This document shows positions 1 through 64,000 of a stretch of 64,000 nt of DNA, one piece after another. The notes beneath the pieces are model-generated. The model saw nothing but the letters and a program-made list of their open reading frames with translations, was not told where the DNA came from and ran no database searches. Each line of letters starts with the position of its first letter. Positions within the stretch are counted from its first letter, which is position 1. Position numbers and translations under genes: made by a program. The DNA is taken from contig OZ024742.1 of assembly GCA_964016885.1 (NCBI GenBank), positions 275,714,001 through 275,778,000 of the forward strand, given 5' to 3'. Source of the stretch: Eledone cirrhosa (taxonomy: Eukaryota).

Positions 1-1110
1 CTCAAAATGGTGGAAATTGTGTTGGGAAGTGGATTGGAGAAAAAACTTGTAGCAGATTGTCTATTAAACAGTACTGTTCAAAGGAGAATCAGAGACATGG
101 CCAATGACATTAAGGATCAAGTCTGCCACATTTGGCTTATTTTAAATTCAACTCGAAGAATCAACTGATGTGCCATCGTGTTCCCTGTTGATGGTGTTTG
201 CAAAGTATGTGTATTCAGGTTCATTTAAAGAAGAGTTTCTCTTTTCATCTCATCTTGAAACAACTACCAAGGATTCTGGTATTTTGCAAAAGGTTTCATC
301 TTTCCTTGAATCAGAAAATCTTTTGTGGAGTAATATCTACGGGTGCTGTACAGATGGAGCACCAGCTATATTGAGTACAAAACCAGGATTTCAAGTTTGT
401 GTGAAAAGCGAACTCGAAAAGTGAAAGGCACTCATTGTATAATCCATTGTCAGACACTGGCCTCCAAAACACTTCCAGGTTGATTATCAATCCATACTGT
501 TCAAAGGCGGATCAGCGACATGGCCATTGACATCAAGAATCAAGTTGTGCAGGATATCAAGTCTGCAGTATTAGGCTTATTTTCAATTCATCTTGTGGAA
601 TGGATCATGCACCTTGCCTATTTGGTTGATATTTTTGAGCAACTGAATAAACTGAATCTTCAGATGAAAGGAAGGAATACAAATATCATAAAATTTGTGG
701 ATGCTTTGAAAGCTTTCATGAGCAAACTGGAAAATTGGGAGAGAAAGATCAATATCAAAAATGTTGCAATGTTTCAGAAGCTGTCATCTGTTGTTATTGG
801 TGGTGGTGAAGACCAAGTGCTTCCACAATTTGTCAAAAATGAAATTTTGTAGCATTTGTCATCAGTGGAAAATGAATTCAGCCAATATTTTCCTGAACTC
901 AGTGATGATTTGGATTTAATGAAAAATCCATTCAAATTGTCAATTGAAAAAGTTCCCAATGATTGTCAAGATGAATTTCTGGAGCTGAAAACTGAATCAG
1001 GAGCAAGAGATATGTTCAATGCGAAATGAATCACAGAATTTTGGTCCTTCATGTGCGATTCCTACCCAAAAGTGGCAGAAAGAACAATCAGTGCATTGCT
1101 TCCATTTGTG
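1..1110 (+). mobile_element. Decayed hAT (Buster/Charlie, ZBED5/ZBED8/FAM200-like) transposase relic, copy 1
   Basis: Fragmented ORFs with motifs QLEESTDV, FKEEFLF, CTDGAPA, HCIIH.Q.LASK, LAYLVDIFEQLNKLNLQMKG and YPKVAERTISALLPF; many stops and frameshifts. Confidence 0.9.
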
Positions 1111-11544: not shown

Positions 11545-11713
11545 TATTAAGAGACATTTTTTACAGAATCATTTAGCACAGATATCAAAACTCTTGGAAA
11601 GTAGATGTCAAACAATGATGATGATGATGAAAATGTCATAGCTTCTCTCCAGTATGAACACATATCTATTTAGTTAAAACACAATTTCTAGAAAATATCA
11701 GTGATGTAAATTT
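11545..11713 (-). pseudogene. Two decayed C2H2 fingers downstream of the ZNF stop codon (3' UTR)
   Basis: Minus reads FSRNCVLTK*ICVHTGEKL*H...DICAK*F; the paralog at 55385-55548 reads HTGEKL*H...DICGKSF. Confidence 0.7.
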
Positions 11714-13159
11714 TCAAAGTTTTCCAACAATGTGCATGTGCTTGTGTCTAGTTAAGGCTCTACTTTCAGAGAATGATTTACCACAGATATCACAATGATA
11801 TGGCTTTTCGCCTGTATGAATACGTTTATGTATAATTAAGGTACTATTTCGAGAATATGATTTACCACAGATATCACAGGGATATGGCTTCTCTCCTGTA
11901 TGAATATATTTGTGGGTTGTTAAATCACCACTCTGAGAAAACGATTTACCGCATATGTCACAGTGAAATGGCTTCTCTCCTGTATGAGTACGTATATGAT
12001 TTGTTAAGGGAGATTTATCAGAGAATGATTTACCACAAATAACACAATGATATGGCTTCTCACCTGTGTGAATGCGTTTATGTCTAGTTAAGACATTTAT
12101 ATGAGAAAATGACTTACCGCAGATATCACAAAGATACAATTTATCTCTTGTATGAACACGTTTGTGTTTAGTTAAGTCACCATTTCGAGAGAATGATTTC
12201 CCACAGATATCACAGTGATATGGTTTTTCTCCTGTATGAGTACATTTGTGTTTAGTTAAAGTACTATTTTGAGTGAATGATCTCCCACAGAAATCACAAT
12301 GATAATTTTTCAAGCCTGTATGAATATTTTTGTGAGCTATCAATGTAGCTATTTCAGAGAATGATTTACCACAGATGTCACAGTGATACTTTTTTAAGCC
12401 TGTATGAATACTTCTGTGAGCTATCAACGTAGCTGTTTCAGAGAATGATTTACCACAGATGTCACAACAATATGGTTTTATGCCTGTATGAATCCATTTG
12501 TGATTAGTTAAGTTACCACCTTCAGAGAATGATTTACCACAGATATCACAGTGATATGGCTTTTCCCCTGTATGGATATGCCTGTGTCTAGTGAGGCTAC
12601 TTCTTCCTGAGAATAACTTACCACAGATATCACAATGATATGGCTTTACTCCTGTATGAGTATGTCTGTGCATACCCAACACACAACTTCTAGAGTAAGA
12701 TTTACCACAGATATCACAGTGATATGGCTTCTCTCCTGTATGGCTACATTTGTGTATAGTTAAAATACTTCCTGAAGAGTAGAACTTACCACAGATATCA
12801 CAGTGATATGGCCTCTCACCTGTATGAGTACGTATGTGTATAGTTAGGCTTCCATTTGCAGAAAATGTTTTACCACAGATGTTACAGTGATATGGCTTCT
12901 TTCTTTTATGAGCAAATTTGTGTTTAATTAAACGAGCATCTTCAGAGAATGATTTACCACAGATATTACAATGGTAAGACTTTTCTCCTCTATTACTATG
13001 TTTATGAGAATTCAGTTTATATTTTTTGGATAATGATTTAGCTGTGATATCACAATGGTATGATGTTTTTACTATCTCGTTCAGTACCTCACTAGGAGAA
13101 TCATTTCTTTCAGGCTCCAATTTAATCTTAACCTGTTTCTCCCATAATTCATTTTCCAT
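11714..13159 (-). CDS. Tandem C2H2 zinc-finger protein, 481 aa, with 15 intact fingers and 1 degenerate finger
   Basis: Uninterrupted ORF of 28-aa CxxC-x12-HxxxH repeats with TGEKP linkers; 33-aa non-finger leader; splice acceptor TTTCAG 84 nt upstream of the ATG. Confidence 0.95.
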   Translation of the reverse strand: MENELWEKQVKIKLEPERNDSPSEVLNEIVKTSYHCDITAKSLSKKYKLNSHKHSNRGEKSYHCNICGKSFSEDARLIKHKFAHKRKKPYHCNICGKTFSANGSLTIHIRTHTGERPYHCDICGKFYSSGSILTIHKCSHTGEKPYHCDICGKSYSRSCVLGMHRHTHTGVKPYHCDICGKLFSGRSSLTRHRHIHTGEKPYHCDICGKSFSEGGNLTNHKWIHTGIKPYCCDICGKSFSETATLIAHRSIHTGLKKYHCDICGKSFSEIATLIAHKNIHTGLKNYHCDFCGRSFTQNSTLTKHKCTHTGEKPYHCDICGKSFSRNGDLTKHKRVHTRDKLYLCDICGKSFSHINVLTRHKRIHTGEKPYHCVICGKSFSDKSPLTNHIRTHTGEKPFHCDICGKSFSQSGDLTTHKYIHTGEKPYPCDICGKSYSRNSTLIIHKRIHTGEKPYHCDICGKSFSESRALTRHKHMHIVGKL

Positions 13160-48314: not shown

Positions 48315-50060
48315 CAAAGGGGTTCTGAACTAGGGGGGAATTGGGACCACATATTGCCAGATTCAAACTGTTAGAATATTGATTTTTGTATTGTTTTCAA
48401 GCTCCCCAGGGCGGCACAGAACGCAGTGTACATCAGTAACCTGCTGCAAACAGCCTATTAACTGTGCATCACAAGCTCCTGAACTGTAAGGTTCAAAATT
48501 GATTACTCTGATAGGGCTGTCACAAAGAAAAGACATATGCTTCCCTGAGTGGTCTGTCTGCAAGTGCCCTTACGTATTACCTAGTCTCCTATCATGAGTA
48601 CCGCCTCCCCTTTCCTTCTCAGTGATGCGACACAACTGCTCTGCTACCCTCCCTCCCACAGATGATATGTGACTCATGCTTGCAGTTCTGACCCTTCTTT
48701 ACTGGTCCGTGCTACTGAGAGGTTACGCGGGTTTTCTCTCCTCTAGCTCGTGTTTTTTTGCCACTTTTAGTATTATTTTATTGATTTCACACTCACATTG
48801 GTGGATGTGCTTCTCTAGTTTTTGTGGCATTAGCGTGGACCATTATCTCCCATATTTGTGCATTTATGTTGTTTTTTTTAGCGTCACCGGCAGTATATAA
48901 TTCTTGACGTCAGCCATATTGTAGATTAAATAAAAAAAATAAAGATAAGTATTTCCCTTTTTAATCTTTGACTTTTCTTGTTTATTTATTTGCAGATTTT
49001 GGAGCACATCATGAGTAGCAAAAAAAGAGAGTACAATTATTCATATATTCAATATCGATTCATATCCATCATCACTAATGGAGAAGAAAGGTCTCAATGT
49101 GTTGTTTGCAGTAAAGCTTTGTCAAATGATTCTATGAAACCGACAAAGTTGAAGCAACATTTACAGAATGTTCATCCTCAATACAAGAACAAGGACAAAA
49201 ACTTTTCTGAATGTCATGGGAATGCTCTTAAACTGATGAAGCTGGATTCAACAGAAGCATTCCAAGAAACAAACCTAAAGGTTACTGAAGCTTCTTATGT
49301 TGGTTGTAGCACTGCAGATAGTAAAGCAGAAAAACCATATACATTTGGGGAAACTTTGATCAAACCTTGCTCTCTCAAAATGGTGGAAATTCTGTTGAGA
49401 AGTGGATTGGAGAAAAACCTTTTAACAGTTTGACTATCAAACAGTACTGTTCAAACGAGGATCAGAGACATGGCCAATGACATCAAGGATCAAGTTGTGC
49501 AGGAGATCAAGTCTGCCACATTTGGCTCATTTTCAATTCAACTGGATGAATCAACTGATGTGCCATCGTGTTCCCTGCTGATGGTGTTTGCAAGGTATGT
49601 GCATTCAGATTCATTTAAAGAAGAGTTTCTCTTTGAAACAACTACCAAGGCCTCTGATATTTTGCAAAAGGTTTCCTCTTTTCTTGAAAATCTGTTGTGG
49701 GATATCTGTGGATGCTGTACAGATGGAGCACCAGTTATGTTGAGTACAAAATCAGGATTTCAAGTTTGTTTGAAAAGCGAGCTCTAAAAGTGAAAGGCAC
49801 TCATTGTATAATCCATCGTCAGACACCGGCCTCCAAAACACTTCCAGCTTCATTATCAATCCATACTGTTCAAAGGAGGATCAGTGACATGGCCATTGAG
49901 ATCAAGGATCAAGTTGTGCAGGAGATCAAGTCTGCAGTATTTGGCTTATTTTCAATTCAACTTGTGGAATGGATCATGCACCTTGCCTATTTGGTTGATA
50001 TTTTTGAGCAGCTAAATAAACTGAATCTTCAGATGAAAGAAAGGAATACAAATATCATAA
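48315..50060 (+). mobile_element. Decayed hAT/Buster element copy 2, including the 5' end and BED finger
   Basis: TIR-like CAAAGGGGTTCTGAAC at 48315; MSSKKREYNYSY...CVVCSKALSNDSMKPTKLKQHLQNVH (BED), KPYTFGETLIKP, QLDESTDV and CTDGAP. Confidence 0.9.
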
Positions 50061-55366: not shown

Positions 55367-55548
55367 ATCTGTATTAATATAATATGTATTAAGAGACGTT
55401 TTTATACAGAATGATTTACCACAGATATCAAAACCCTTGAAAAGTAGATGTTAAATGATGATGATGAAAATGTCATAGCTTCTCTCCAGTATGAATACGT
55501 GTTTAGTTAAAACACAATTTCTAGAAAATATCAGACTGATATAGATTT

Positions 55549-57051
55549 TCAAAGATCTCCCACAATATGCATGTGCTTGTGTTTAGTTAGGGCATTATCT
55601 TCAGAGAATGATTTATCACAGATATCACAGTGATATGGCTTTTCACCTGTATGAATACGTTTATGTATAATTAAGGTACTATTTCGAGAATATGATTTAC
55701 CACAGATATCACAAGGATATGGCTTGTCTCCTGTATGAATATATTTGTGGGTTGTTAAATCACTACTTTGAGAAAATGACTTACCACATATGTCACAGTG
55801 AAATGGCTTCTCTCCTGTATGAGTACGTATGTGGTTTGTTAAGGGAGTTTTATCAGAGAATGATTTACCACAAATGACACAGTGATATGGCTTCTCACCT
55901 GTGTGAATGCGTTTATGTCTAGTTAAGACATTTGCATGAGAGAATGACTTACCACAGATATCACAAAGATATAATTTATCTCTTGTATGAACACGTTTGT
56001 GTTTAGTTAAGTCACCACTTCGAAGAAATGATTTACCACAGACATCACAATGATATGGCTTTTCTCCTGTATGAGTACGTATGTGTACAATTAATTCACT
56101 ACCGCAATGGCATGATTTACCACAGATATCACAGCGATTTGGCTGCTCACCTGTATGAATACGTCTATGATTGGTTAAGGTACCACCTTCAGTGAATGAC
56201 TTACCACAGATATCACAGTGATAAGGCTTCTCTCCTGTATGAATGCGTTTGTGTTTATTTAATTTACTTCCTATAGAAAATGATTTACCACAGCTGTCAC
56301 ATTGGTATGGCTTCTCTTTTGTATGAATGCGCTTGTGTGTAGTTAATTTAGTATTTGTAAAGAATAATTTACCACAGATGTCACAGTGATATTGCTTTTC
56401 TCTTGAATGAAGGAGTTTGTGCTTAGATAAGTTACTTCTAATAGAGAAAGATTTACCACAGGTATCACAGTGATATGGCTTTTCTCCTGTATGAGTACGT
56501 TTGTGTATAGTTAATTTAGTATTTGTAAAGAATGATTTACCACAGGGATCACAATGATATGGCTTTTCTTCTGTATGAGTAAATTTGTGTCTCTGTAAGT
56601 CTGAATTTCGGAAGAATGATTTACCACAGACCTCACAGTAATATGGTTTTATTCCTGTGTGAGTAGATTTGTGTCTCTGTAAGTCTGAATTTCGGGAGAA
56701 TGATTTACCACAGACCTCACAGCAATAGCTTTTTATTCTTGTATGGATACTTTTGTGAGATATCAAGTTATGTTTTTGGGAGAATGATTTACCACAGATA
56801 TCACAGTTATATGGCTTTTCGCCTGTATGCGTACGTATGTGTGTAGTTAACTTTCCATTTGCAGAAAATGTTTTACCACAGATGTCACAGTGATATGGTT
56901 TTATTCCTGTATGGATACTTTTGTGAGCACTCAAAGTATCTCTTTGATAGTATAATGTTTTTACTATCTCGTTCAGTACCTCACTAGGAGAATCATTTCT
57001 TTCAGACTCCGATTTAATCTTTACCTCTTTCTCCCATAATTCATTTTCCAT
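55549..57051 (-). CDS. Tandem C2H2 zinc-finger protein, 500 aa, with 16 intact fingers and a half finger
   Basis: Uninterrupted ORF; shares the leader and the last six fingers with 11714-13159. Confidence 0.95.
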
Positions 57052-61590: not shown

Positions 61591-63019
61591 GACGAGATTG
61601 CAGAGATACGTAGATGAACGAGTATGTGTATGTGGATACATTCAGTATACCCATCTATCAATATACCCCGGAAGAGGGGGGGTCACGTATTCGCATACTC
61701 AAACTGTTAGAATATTGACTTTTGTATTGCTTTCGAACTCCCCAGGGCGACACAGAACGCAATGTGCATGGGTTACCTGCTGCAAGCAGCCTATTAAACT
61801 GTGTATCACAAGCACCTGAATCGTAACGTTCAAAATAGATTACGAATAGATAGGGCTGCCACAAAAGAGAGACATATGCACCACCGAGTGGTCTGTCTGC
61901 AAGTGCCCTTACGTATTACCTACTCTCCTTCATGAGTACTCCCCTTTTCTTTCTCGGTGATGCGACGCCACGGCTCTGCTACCCTCCCTCCCACAGATGA
62001 TGTGTGACTTATACTTGCAGTTCTGAGCCTTCTTCAGTGGTCTGTGCTACTGAAAGGTCACGCTGGATTTTCTCTCCTCAAGCTCATGTTTTTTTTTGCC
62101 ACCTTTAGTATTGTATGAAACAATTATTGATTTCACACTCACATCGGTGGCTATGCTTCTCTAGCTTTTGTGGTGTTAGCGTGGAACATTATCTCCCTTA
62201 TTTATGTTTTTGTATAGCACCACCGGCAGTATTTAATTCTTGACGTCAGCTCTATTGTAGATCTTTGACTTTTCTTGTTTTTTTAGAGCACATCATGACT
62301 GGCAAAAAATGGAGAAGAAAAGCCTCAATATGTTGTTTGCAGTAAAGCTTTGACAAATGATTCTATGAAACTGACAAAGTTGAAGCAACGTTTACAAAAT
62401 GTTCATCCTCAACACAAGGACAAGGACAACAGCTTTTTGAATGTCATGGGAATGCTCTTAAAAGGATGAAGCGGATTCAACAGGGGCATTCCAAGAAACA
62501 AACCTAAAGATTAATGAAGCTTCTTTGTCGTAGCACTGGAGATAGCAATGCAGAAAAGCCACATACATTTGAGGGAACTTTGATCAAACCTTGCTCTCTC
62601 AAAATGGTGGAAATTGTGTTGGGAAGTGGATTGGAGAAAAAGTTTGCAGCAGTTTCACTATGAAACAGTGCTGTTCAAAGGAGGATCAGAGACATGGCCA
62701 ATGACATCAAGGATCAAGTCTGCCACATTTGGCTGATTTCCAATTCAACTTGATGAATCAACTGATTTGGCATCGTGTTCCCTGTTGATGGTGTTTGCAA
62801 GGTATGTGCATTCAGGTTCATTTAAAGAGGAGTTTCTCTTTTCATCTCATCTTGAAACGACTACCAAGGCCCCTGGTATTTTGCAAAAGGTTTCATCTTT
62901 CCTTGAATCAGAAAATCTTTTGTGGAATAATATTTGTGGGTGATGTACAGATGGAGCACCAGCTATGTTGGGTATAAAATCAGGATTTCAAGTTTGTGTG
63001 AAAAAGCGAGCTCTAAAAC

Positions 63020-63051
63020 GGCTGCGTGTTCGTATCACGTCAGGGTTACCA
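63020..63051 (+). other. 3' 32 nt of a tRNA-Trp including CCA (primer-derived, not a tRNA gene)
   Basis: GGCT GCGTG TTCGTAT CACGT CAGGGTT A CCA matches metazoan tRNA-Trp positions 45-76 (GGCTGCGTGTTCGAATCACGTCGGGGTCACCA) with 3 differences. Confidence 0.8.
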
Positions 63052-63052
63052 A

Positions 63053-63361
63053 TATAGCGAGAGTACTGGGTTGTATGAATGTAACAAAACAAGGCATGGT
63101 TTGTGTGTATAATATTTAATTAACAATGGTAGATAGTATAGTTGACATGTCAAAGAAATAGATGATAGAATGAAACAAAGTTAGTCGTTACCGTTTTGAT
63201 TGCCAGGCAAACGCGGCTGGCAGAGGACGCCAGGCGCCGGAAGGCCAAATGAGAGGCAGAGAGCCGAGAGCTATTCGTTTTATAGGGCTCTGCCGGAAGT
63301 TACAGAAAGGGTTCTACTTCCCGTCTAGATGTTAATCCAAACAAGGGAGACAACCGCTACA
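63053..63361 (-). mobile_element. Single 309-bp LTR (Gypsy-like) followed by a tRNA-Trp PBS
   Basis: Minus strand TGTAGCGG...TCGCTATA termini, CCTATAAAA TATA box, ATTAAA signal, then T plus TGGTAACCCTGACGTGAT; absent from hAT copies 1 and 2. Confidence 0.82.
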
Positions 63362-64000
63362 AGTGAAAGGCATTCAATGTATGATCCATCATCAGACACC
63401 GACCTCCAAAATACTTCCAGGTTCATTATCAATCCATACTGTTCAAAGGAGGATCAAGTATCAAGTTGTGTAGGAAATCAAGTCTGCAGTATTTGGCTTA
63501 TTTTCAATTCAGCTTGTGGAATGGATCATGCACCTTGCCTATTTGGTTGATATTTTTGAGCAGCTAAATAAACTGAATCTTCAGACAAAAGGAAGGAATA
63601 CAAATATCATAAAATTTGTGGATGCTTTGAAAGCTTTCATGGGCAAACTAGAAAATTGGAAGAGAAAGATCAATATCAAAAATGTTGCAATGTTTGAGAA
63701 GCTGTCATCTGTTGTTGGTGGTGGTGAAGACCAAGTGCTTCGACAATTTGTAAAAAATGAAATTTTGTAGCATTTGTCATCAGTGGAAAATGAATTCAGC
63801 CAATATTTTCCTGAACTCAGGGATGATGATTTGGATTTAATGCAAAATCCATTCAAATTGTCAATTGAATAAGTTCCCAATATAAATTTCTGGAGCTGAA
63901 AACTGATTTTGGGGCAAGAGATATGTTCAATGAGAAATCAATTACAGAATTTAGGCTCTTCGTGTGTAATTCCTACCCAAAAGTGGAGAAAGAGTAATCA

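Follow-up and report, generated by a model that had tools for sequence, protein, structure and literature searches.

A non-coding LTR retrotransposon family of Eledone cirrhosa inherits a primer-binding site extended into tRNA-Trp

Near the end of the window (the whole 64,000-nucleotide stretch of Eledone cirrhosa DNA that was analysed, lying on contig C3 of a 3.0-Gb genome), a relic that an earlier sequence-only reading had named hAT is interrupted by an LTR whose primer-binding site (PBS) runs on into sequence complementary to tRNA-Trp, with a mismatch at tRNA position 58. The question raised by this locus is whether the tRNA-like stretch was copied from a primer tRNA when this insert arose, or whether the element already carried it.

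The insert and its retrotransposon family

On the minus strand, the insert consists, in order, of an LTR, one spacer base, the PBS, a 14-nt complement of tRNA-Trp, and one more base (Table 1). This order and the coordinates had been read from the sequence alone, and both held on re-reading and on comparison with the family. The tRNA-Trp match of 63020-63051 is not due to chance, because complementarity extends to 29 of the 32 nt and no match came from the reversed-pattern controls. Compared with the host tRNA-Trp genes, this segment differs at exactly three sites, 63033 (tRNA position 58), 63042 (67), and 63047 (72), which confirms the difference at 58 reported earlier. ARAGORN detected no tRNA gene in the window, and the Rfam search of 62500-64000 returned two matches only, both at chance level.

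At the corresponding site, two hAT paralogues in the window (about 411-421 and about 49781-49792) lack the insert, and there is no 4-5 bp target-site duplication (TSD) around it, in agreement with the sequence-only reading. The insertion site holds one A more than the empty paralogues and, given this extra base, the insert may be 344 bp long rather than 343. On the leader side, the family leader and the hAT relic share as many as two bases of the junction. DNA sequencing runs, whose cover of the flanks was thin, showed no joint across the insert, and no RNA run was listed for it, which has no bearing on expression; contigs of run X1, possibly the source sample itself, span both insert junctions but reach just 20 and 27 letters into the insert, short of the 31-letter rule, and 21 raw reads from another sample run on into the family leader at 63017.

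Table 1 Features of the insert and its flanks (window positions)
Feature	Positions	Strand	Remarks
5' LTR of non-coding LTR retrotransposon family	63053..63361	-	309 bp, ends TG...TA; family LTRs 317-335 bp
Single spacer base between LTR and PBS	63052..63052	-	Common to family copies
tRNA-Trp PBS, 18 nt, with two family substitutions (63047, 63042)	63034..63051	-	379 exact matches to a PBS of this type together with the extension
14-nt extension complementary to tRNA-Trp 58-45, inherited family leader	63020..63033	-	A opposite A58 at 63033
First 1-3 nt of family leader, break point at predicted U5-leader hairpin tip	63017..63019	-	At most 2 nt common to hAT flank
Putative hAT-type relic, left flank	62701..63018	+	91.5% to window 104-420; 85.7% to 49505-49789; both empty at site
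Putative hAT-type relic, right flank	63362..63700	+	One extra A at site; without 4-bp TSD

A genome search with the insert gave 2128 first-look candidates, of which 40 were scored (86-96% identity); all 343 bases were covered by 21 of the 41 scored matches, counting the window copy. The extension was present in each of the 16 other distinct 5' LTR junctions that were read (15 identical and one with a single change), and all 16 have the same PBS and the same next base, followed by a common leader. Genome-wide, 513 exact family matches carry the extension after the PBS, a finding named beforehand by the sequence-only reading as one that would speak against its own account; the base opposite position 58 in these matches is A in 507, G in 6, and T or C in none. 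Among 40 further copies from the pattern-match list, 39 extend at least 200 nt into the family leader; the remaining copy folds back.

Five full elements of 1.9-2.2 kb possess two LTRs, a PBS, a polypurine tract, and 4-bp TSDs (5/5), and their LTR pairs have 310-331 identical bases of 317-335 (97-99%). No recognisable Gag-Pol was found in these five, nor any stop-free stretch of more than 197 codons when the stretches were read by eye. The family is a non-autonomous, non-coding LTR retrotransposon of over 500 copies, all inheriting the extension. The window copy, which shares the two PBS substitutions and the base after position 45 with the family, is the truncated 5' end of one such element, and its mismatch at 58 was inherited. 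The stretch previously described as tRNA sequence rather than retroelement leader is the family's own leader and, with 16/16 other junctions carrying the extension, the locus is not an integrated read-through product that itself records the modification m1A58.

The host tRNA-Trp genes gave 46 matches with a search pattern that fixed A58, none with both PBS substitutions. Since the family PBS changes are present in the window DNA and jointly absent from the host tRNA-Trp, this DNA was templated on an element and not on the tRNA; 63042 and 63047, earlier ascribed to post-insertion decay or to host tRNA differences, are family substitutions. A separate search revealed one tRNA-Trp gene copy with T58, but the copy has A57 and the family has G57. 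That the three differences stem from a variant host tRNA was therefore rejected: no gene has both PBS changes, and the T58 copy differs at 57. Of note, this copy is included in a tandem array of more than 30 tRNA-Trp gene matches, mostly of the A57 isoform (G000:C4:353394883-353486314).

Origin of the extension

We consider it probable that the extension was made once, in an ancestor. Plus-strand strong-stop synthesis would have read through m1A58 of the tRNA-Trp primer, an A would have been placed opposite it, and reverse transcriptase (RT) would have stopped near position 45. The founding event may have been a single overrun in an ancestor or the renewed copying of a site that was extended before, with its product rejoined to the element leader by mis-transfer or fold-back, and the family would then have been mobilised by coding CsRn1-type gypsy helpers. 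Methylation of A58 in the host tRNA-Trp is likely, judging from the conservation of m1A58 in primer tRNAs (PMC13191261), and m1A read-through with misincorporation is documented (PMC4787781). The read-through mechanism put forward earlier for the window locus is abandoned there, but is likely for the founder of the family. It should be noted that the family's A at 58 represents one event (n=1), that two ordinary PBS substitutions also became fixed in this lineage, so this A could be chance, and that a coding family has the same end (45) with the matching T, so the extension may have been inherited and mutated later.

PBS inheritance was followed on a tree of 81 family copies, from which the PBS and the extension were excluded and in which tRNA-perfect PBSs were enriched by sampling. 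The copies divide into 56 with the variant PBS, 23 with a tRNA-perfect PBS, and only 2 half-way. On this tree, which has chimeric long-branch rows and unsettled bootstrap values, the PBS type needs 14 changes, five of them forced by well-supported branches, and is still clustered (14 changes vs a shuffled mean of 21.6). The simplest reading would be that the 18-nt PBS is occasionally corrected from the primer and position 58 never is, the extension being a passenger or a pairing aid. Because the PBS flips between variant and perfect while position 58 never regains the tRNA-matching base, family replication would normally stop at 58. Alternatively, the mixed PBS types may have come about via recombination among copies. 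PBS reversion through tRNA copying is in print (PMC7472051); the tree suggests such tRNA-templated correction in a gypsy-type element, whereas the same review has Ty1 and Ty3 strictly inheriting their PBS.

We think it rather unlikely that the extension is instead a selected, longer primer-pairing site that came from a coding relative, with A at 58 tolerated since m1A58 cannot pair. A CsRn1-type coding gypsy family with an extension to 45 was found (21 matches, T at 58 in 20 of them; protease, RT, RNase H, and integrase detected with Pfam, and a CHCC Gag motif), as was a second coding family with an extension to 37 (3 copies, one of which combines A at 58 with the alternative isoform base at 47). 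The predicted tRNA pairing energy doubles with the extension (from -27.7 to -55.9 kcal/mol), 15 of the 16 copies that were retrieved without any pattern constraint have an identical extension, and one locus (L086) joins the LTR of the coding family to the leader of the window family. However, the window family matches C47, the common isoform, and the coding family T47, the rarer one, so that two changes are needed, both of the kind that one fresh tRNA copying gives; no similarity was detected by BLAST between the two LTRs; and the extension is absent from other PBS families (105 of the 189 sites examined). An overrun origin and retention by selection are compatible with each other. Since no direct LTR homology was found between them, the coding family ending at 45 is no more than a candidate helper of the window family.

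Very improbable is the sequence-only reading of the insert as an aborted product of plus-strand strong-stop synthesis, with its final 32 nt templated by the tRNA and its mismatch made in that event: the exact U3 start, the missing TSD, an end within 1-3 nt of the tRNA match, and the presence of such products elsewhere in the genome would suit it, but hundreds of family copies have this very leader, identical in the extension, the A at 58, both PBS changes, and the base that follows, and a tRNA template would give a tRNA-perfect PBS (0/46 host matches have both substitutions).

Read-on junctions elsewhere in the genome

Exact copies of the tRNA-perfect PBS number 410, and 124 of them run on into the tRNA to at least position 49. 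A sample of 189 distinct PBS sites, enriched for extensions, contained 84 sites that read on and 105 without extension; most of the 84 belong to families. A tally within this sample of junctions continuing into tRNA, which the sequence-only reading had proposed for the whole genome, yielded 24 independent read-on LTR-PBS junctions with unique downstream DNA, which fall into 9 LTR groups (BLAST) and end at tRNA-Trp positions 28-52. These junctions have an excess of errors at position 58, in support of the earlier proposal beyond the window locus, and read-through is likely at these other loci: the base is wrong in 5/24, vs 9/470 at other extension sites (Fisher p=0.0003), and in 3/14 vs 6/264 (p=0.007) in the subset found by PBS-only patterns. 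The background error rate in these comparisons was lowered by the exact patterns and by end-trimming; with a 5% background P=0.006, and with a 10% background P=0.085. Position 58 has the correct base in 19 of the 24, three of the five wrong-at-58 junctions sit in two LTR groups, and one junction has a second mismatch, at 37.

The count of 24 depends on several choices. Locus L155 was excluded because it derives from the window family, and L106 was included even though it clusters with L333 via a shared fold-back. L095/L329, L229/L230, and L115/L117/L124 were each taken as a family. L327 scored under the cut-off and was not counted, and the L341 type (coding, 4-nt match, A at 58, about 11 sites) was left out, as a match that short can be chance.

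The end points include eleven at 38-40, five at 35-36, and three at 28-29, in a tally in which one search pattern forced ends beyond 42. They fit stops at G37 and G26 of tRNA-Trp, both of which we take to be modified. No exact 4-bp TSD was found in the 18 read-on junctions with a candidate LTR start (0/18). A second LTR lies downstream in two of the 24 and inverted LTR copies in two, the downstream scope being at most 1.5 kb for 17 of them. Adding three family representatives gives three LTR groups in which every member is wrong at position 58 (8/8; G/A/A/G, C/G/A, and C), whereas the base is correct in 19/19 of the remaining groups. Members of a single LTR group differ from each other in the base at 58, in the isoform bases at positions 57 and 47, and in where they end. 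Small as these numbers are, the variation points to separate tRNA copyings by lineages that differ in fidelity.

Other layouts were encountered during the tally. At L327 (G000:C2:139378313), an LTR-like end and PBS lead into a degraded complement of nearly all of tRNA-Trp, which may be an ancient complete read-through. At L139, L127, L150, L152, L237, L106, L032, and L118, the PBS is followed by an LTR start, an internal LTR, or an inverted LTR copy, and these joints look like circle-junction and fold-back products of reverse transcription. Reportedly, tRNA sequence at LTR circle junctions was described by Colicelli and Goff in 1986, and Ty1 capture by Moore and Haber in 1996. Tandem units of LTR end, PBS, and extension inside one leader occur at L067/L068, L070, and L183/L189, in this genome and in metagenome contigs, and L105 (G000:C14:21368000-21465000) is a tandem array of ~5.7-kb units, each with the family LTR, the leader, and a ~47-bp satellite.

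The metagenome contigs provided 11 stretches with a PBS and extension behind a putative upstream LTR, three of them wrong at 58 and one with a mismatch at 37. In host tRNA numbering, they end at 27, 27, 28, 32, 38, 40, 41, 44, 45, and 45, with one near the tRNA 5' end. One pair repeats the layout of an extension to 45, a spacer, and a second partial PBS.

Fixed extensions also vary at 58. Sister copies differ at this position in two small families, the second coding family (T/A/T with an isoform switch) and a third pair of elements, with an extension to 44 (C in one copy and A in the other). The coding elements with an extended PBS have a CHCC Gag, a DTG protease, a YxDD RT, and a GPY integrase tail, in the order PR-RT-RH-IN. 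The CHCC Gag motif was found in 5/9 other tRNA-Trp elements examined; the window family, being non-coding, lacks it by nature. Coding CsRn1-type elements at L341, L195, L206, and about 8 more loci have a leader layout that echoes that of the window family: the PBS is followed by 4 nt matching the tRNA (with A at 58), a spacer, and another, partial PBS. LTR swaps, with the LTR of one family on the leader of another, were observed at L086, L318, and L239; they suggest co-packaging and recombination.

The break point and comparison with known systems

Downstream of the extension, the family leader contains a stretch that briefly repeats the LTR end and carries a partial second PBS, then an A-run, and a U5 copy in inverted orientation. 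For one copy, folding predicts a long hairpin with the end of the extension as its loop (-48.4 kcal/mol, z=-4.6, 0/200 shuffles as good), and three more copies are predicted to fold alike. The window copy breaks 1-3 nt beyond the predicted loop. At six loci, another LTR-PBS lies head-to-head with the leader of the window family, joined a few bases further on, and this part of the leader may be prone to breakage or template switching. Such head-to-head joints, in which the LTR and PBS of other families meet the window family leader at the same 3-nt microhomology, were noted at L130, L131, L141-L143, L224, L240, and L334; they involve at least two different LTR types and suggest two plus strands joined at their 3' ends.

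We favour a captured broken cDNA as the origin of the truncation: the window fragment is likely a cDNA with an exact U3 end whose other end broke at the hairpin tip before end-joining. A less likely course is that a full-length element first integrated with a 4-bp TSD, and that a subsequent deletion, joined via 1-2 bp of microhomology, removed everything between the hairpin tip and the TSD. Such a deletion would agree with the exact TG start, as given by normal integration, with the 1-2 T common to both sides of the junction, and with the one extra base at the site, which would be a TSD remnant; inverted repeats are also known to favour deletion. Its far break, however, must fall within about 2 bp of the element end. 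Moreover, LTR-PBS fragments without TSD are common here (the 0/18 given above), and the six head-to-head chimeras break in the same part of the leader.

In its general layout, the window family resembles TRIM/LARD-type elements, which are non-coding and have two LTRs, a PBS, a polypurine tract, a TSD, and a structured leader. It differs from typical TRIM elements by its larger size of 1.9-2.2 kb and by a leader made of an over-extended PBS, a second partial PBS, and the inverted U5.

The features of the CsRn1 clade of Ty3/gypsy elements are described in PMC2582038. The window family is similar to this clade in its tRNA-Trp PBS and 4-bp TSD and differs in being without a coding region; the coding elements found here are similar in their Gag, protease, RT, and integrase motifs and domain order. 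The accessible text of PMC2582038 mentions only a PBS for the clade and no extension of 14-22 nt.

In lentiviruses, m1A58 is the plus-strand stop and the extra complementarity is short (PMC8599865, PMC13191261); according to the same sources, complementarity beyond the 18-nt PBS into the T-loop can rescue plus strands past m1A58 in lentiviruses and spumaviruses, and HIV-1 has a minor plus-strand stop at position 37. The family studied here is alike in having complementarity directly after the PBS (13/14 nt). The lentiviral and spumaviral over-extension reaches ~55, whereas it reaches 45, 44, or 37 here, in gypsy elements, with tRNA-Trp and with a putative function. As to rescue of over-extended plus strands at the second strand transfer, the window family speaks against it, since 0/513 copies have T at 58 and few vary, whereas the sister copies that differ at 58 in two small families speak for it.

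A family-wide mismatch at tRNA position 58 has been described in the mouse ERV ETn/MusD and was ascribed by the authors to m1A misincorporation (10.1101/2025.05.12.650695), so the idea of a genomic record of m1A58 is already in print for a mouse ERV. ETn/MusD differs from the window family by an extension of ~4 nt, by tRNA-Lys3, and by C at the site, and that account, as far as its accessible text goes, does not include, as the present one does, a series of independent events that differ in base and end point. For Ty1, LTR-region intermediates with cDNA-only bases (40/56 3' LTR insertions) were end-joined without an integrase TSD (PMC11372161). Those captures concern induced breaks in yeast, whereas the present ones are germline-fixed animal relics that continue 7-31 nt past the PBS into the primer tRNA.

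Within the open papers covered by our literature search (closed papers, supplements, and repeat databases lay outside it), neither 14-22-nt extensions in gypsy elements nor a genomic tally of LTR-PBS junctions reading on into tRNA was found. Over-extension, the mismatch at the m1A site, and cDNA capture are known; the length, the recurrence, and the genomic tally are new as far as we found.

The window locus itself is ordinary transposon debris. The plus-strand stop at m1A58 has long been argued from in vitro work on a few retroviruses (PMC8599865), and its failures are apparently preserved in germline DNA, where end points and error bases can be counted. More broadly, and with confidence evenly balanced, CsRn1-rich animal genomes may hold a readable fossil record of in vivo reverse transcription through modified tRNA, with stops near 37 and 26, lineage-specific errors at 58, and overruns that repeatedly founded families with primer sites extended by 14-22 nt, some of which were re-copied later. 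If so, tRNA modification and RT fidelity could be read from assemblies alone. The wider pattern also offers a concrete route by which a copying error can remodel a leader and give rise to a successful family of over 500 copies.

Two further observations concern repeats. The window contains two 84-bp repeat arrays (11667-13142 and 55502-57041) that are about 93% alike in register and, judging from the repeat period, are likely paralogous C2H2 zinc-finger exons. A short interspersed repeat, presumably similar to an octopus SINE, is present in the flanks of L119, L116, and L122.
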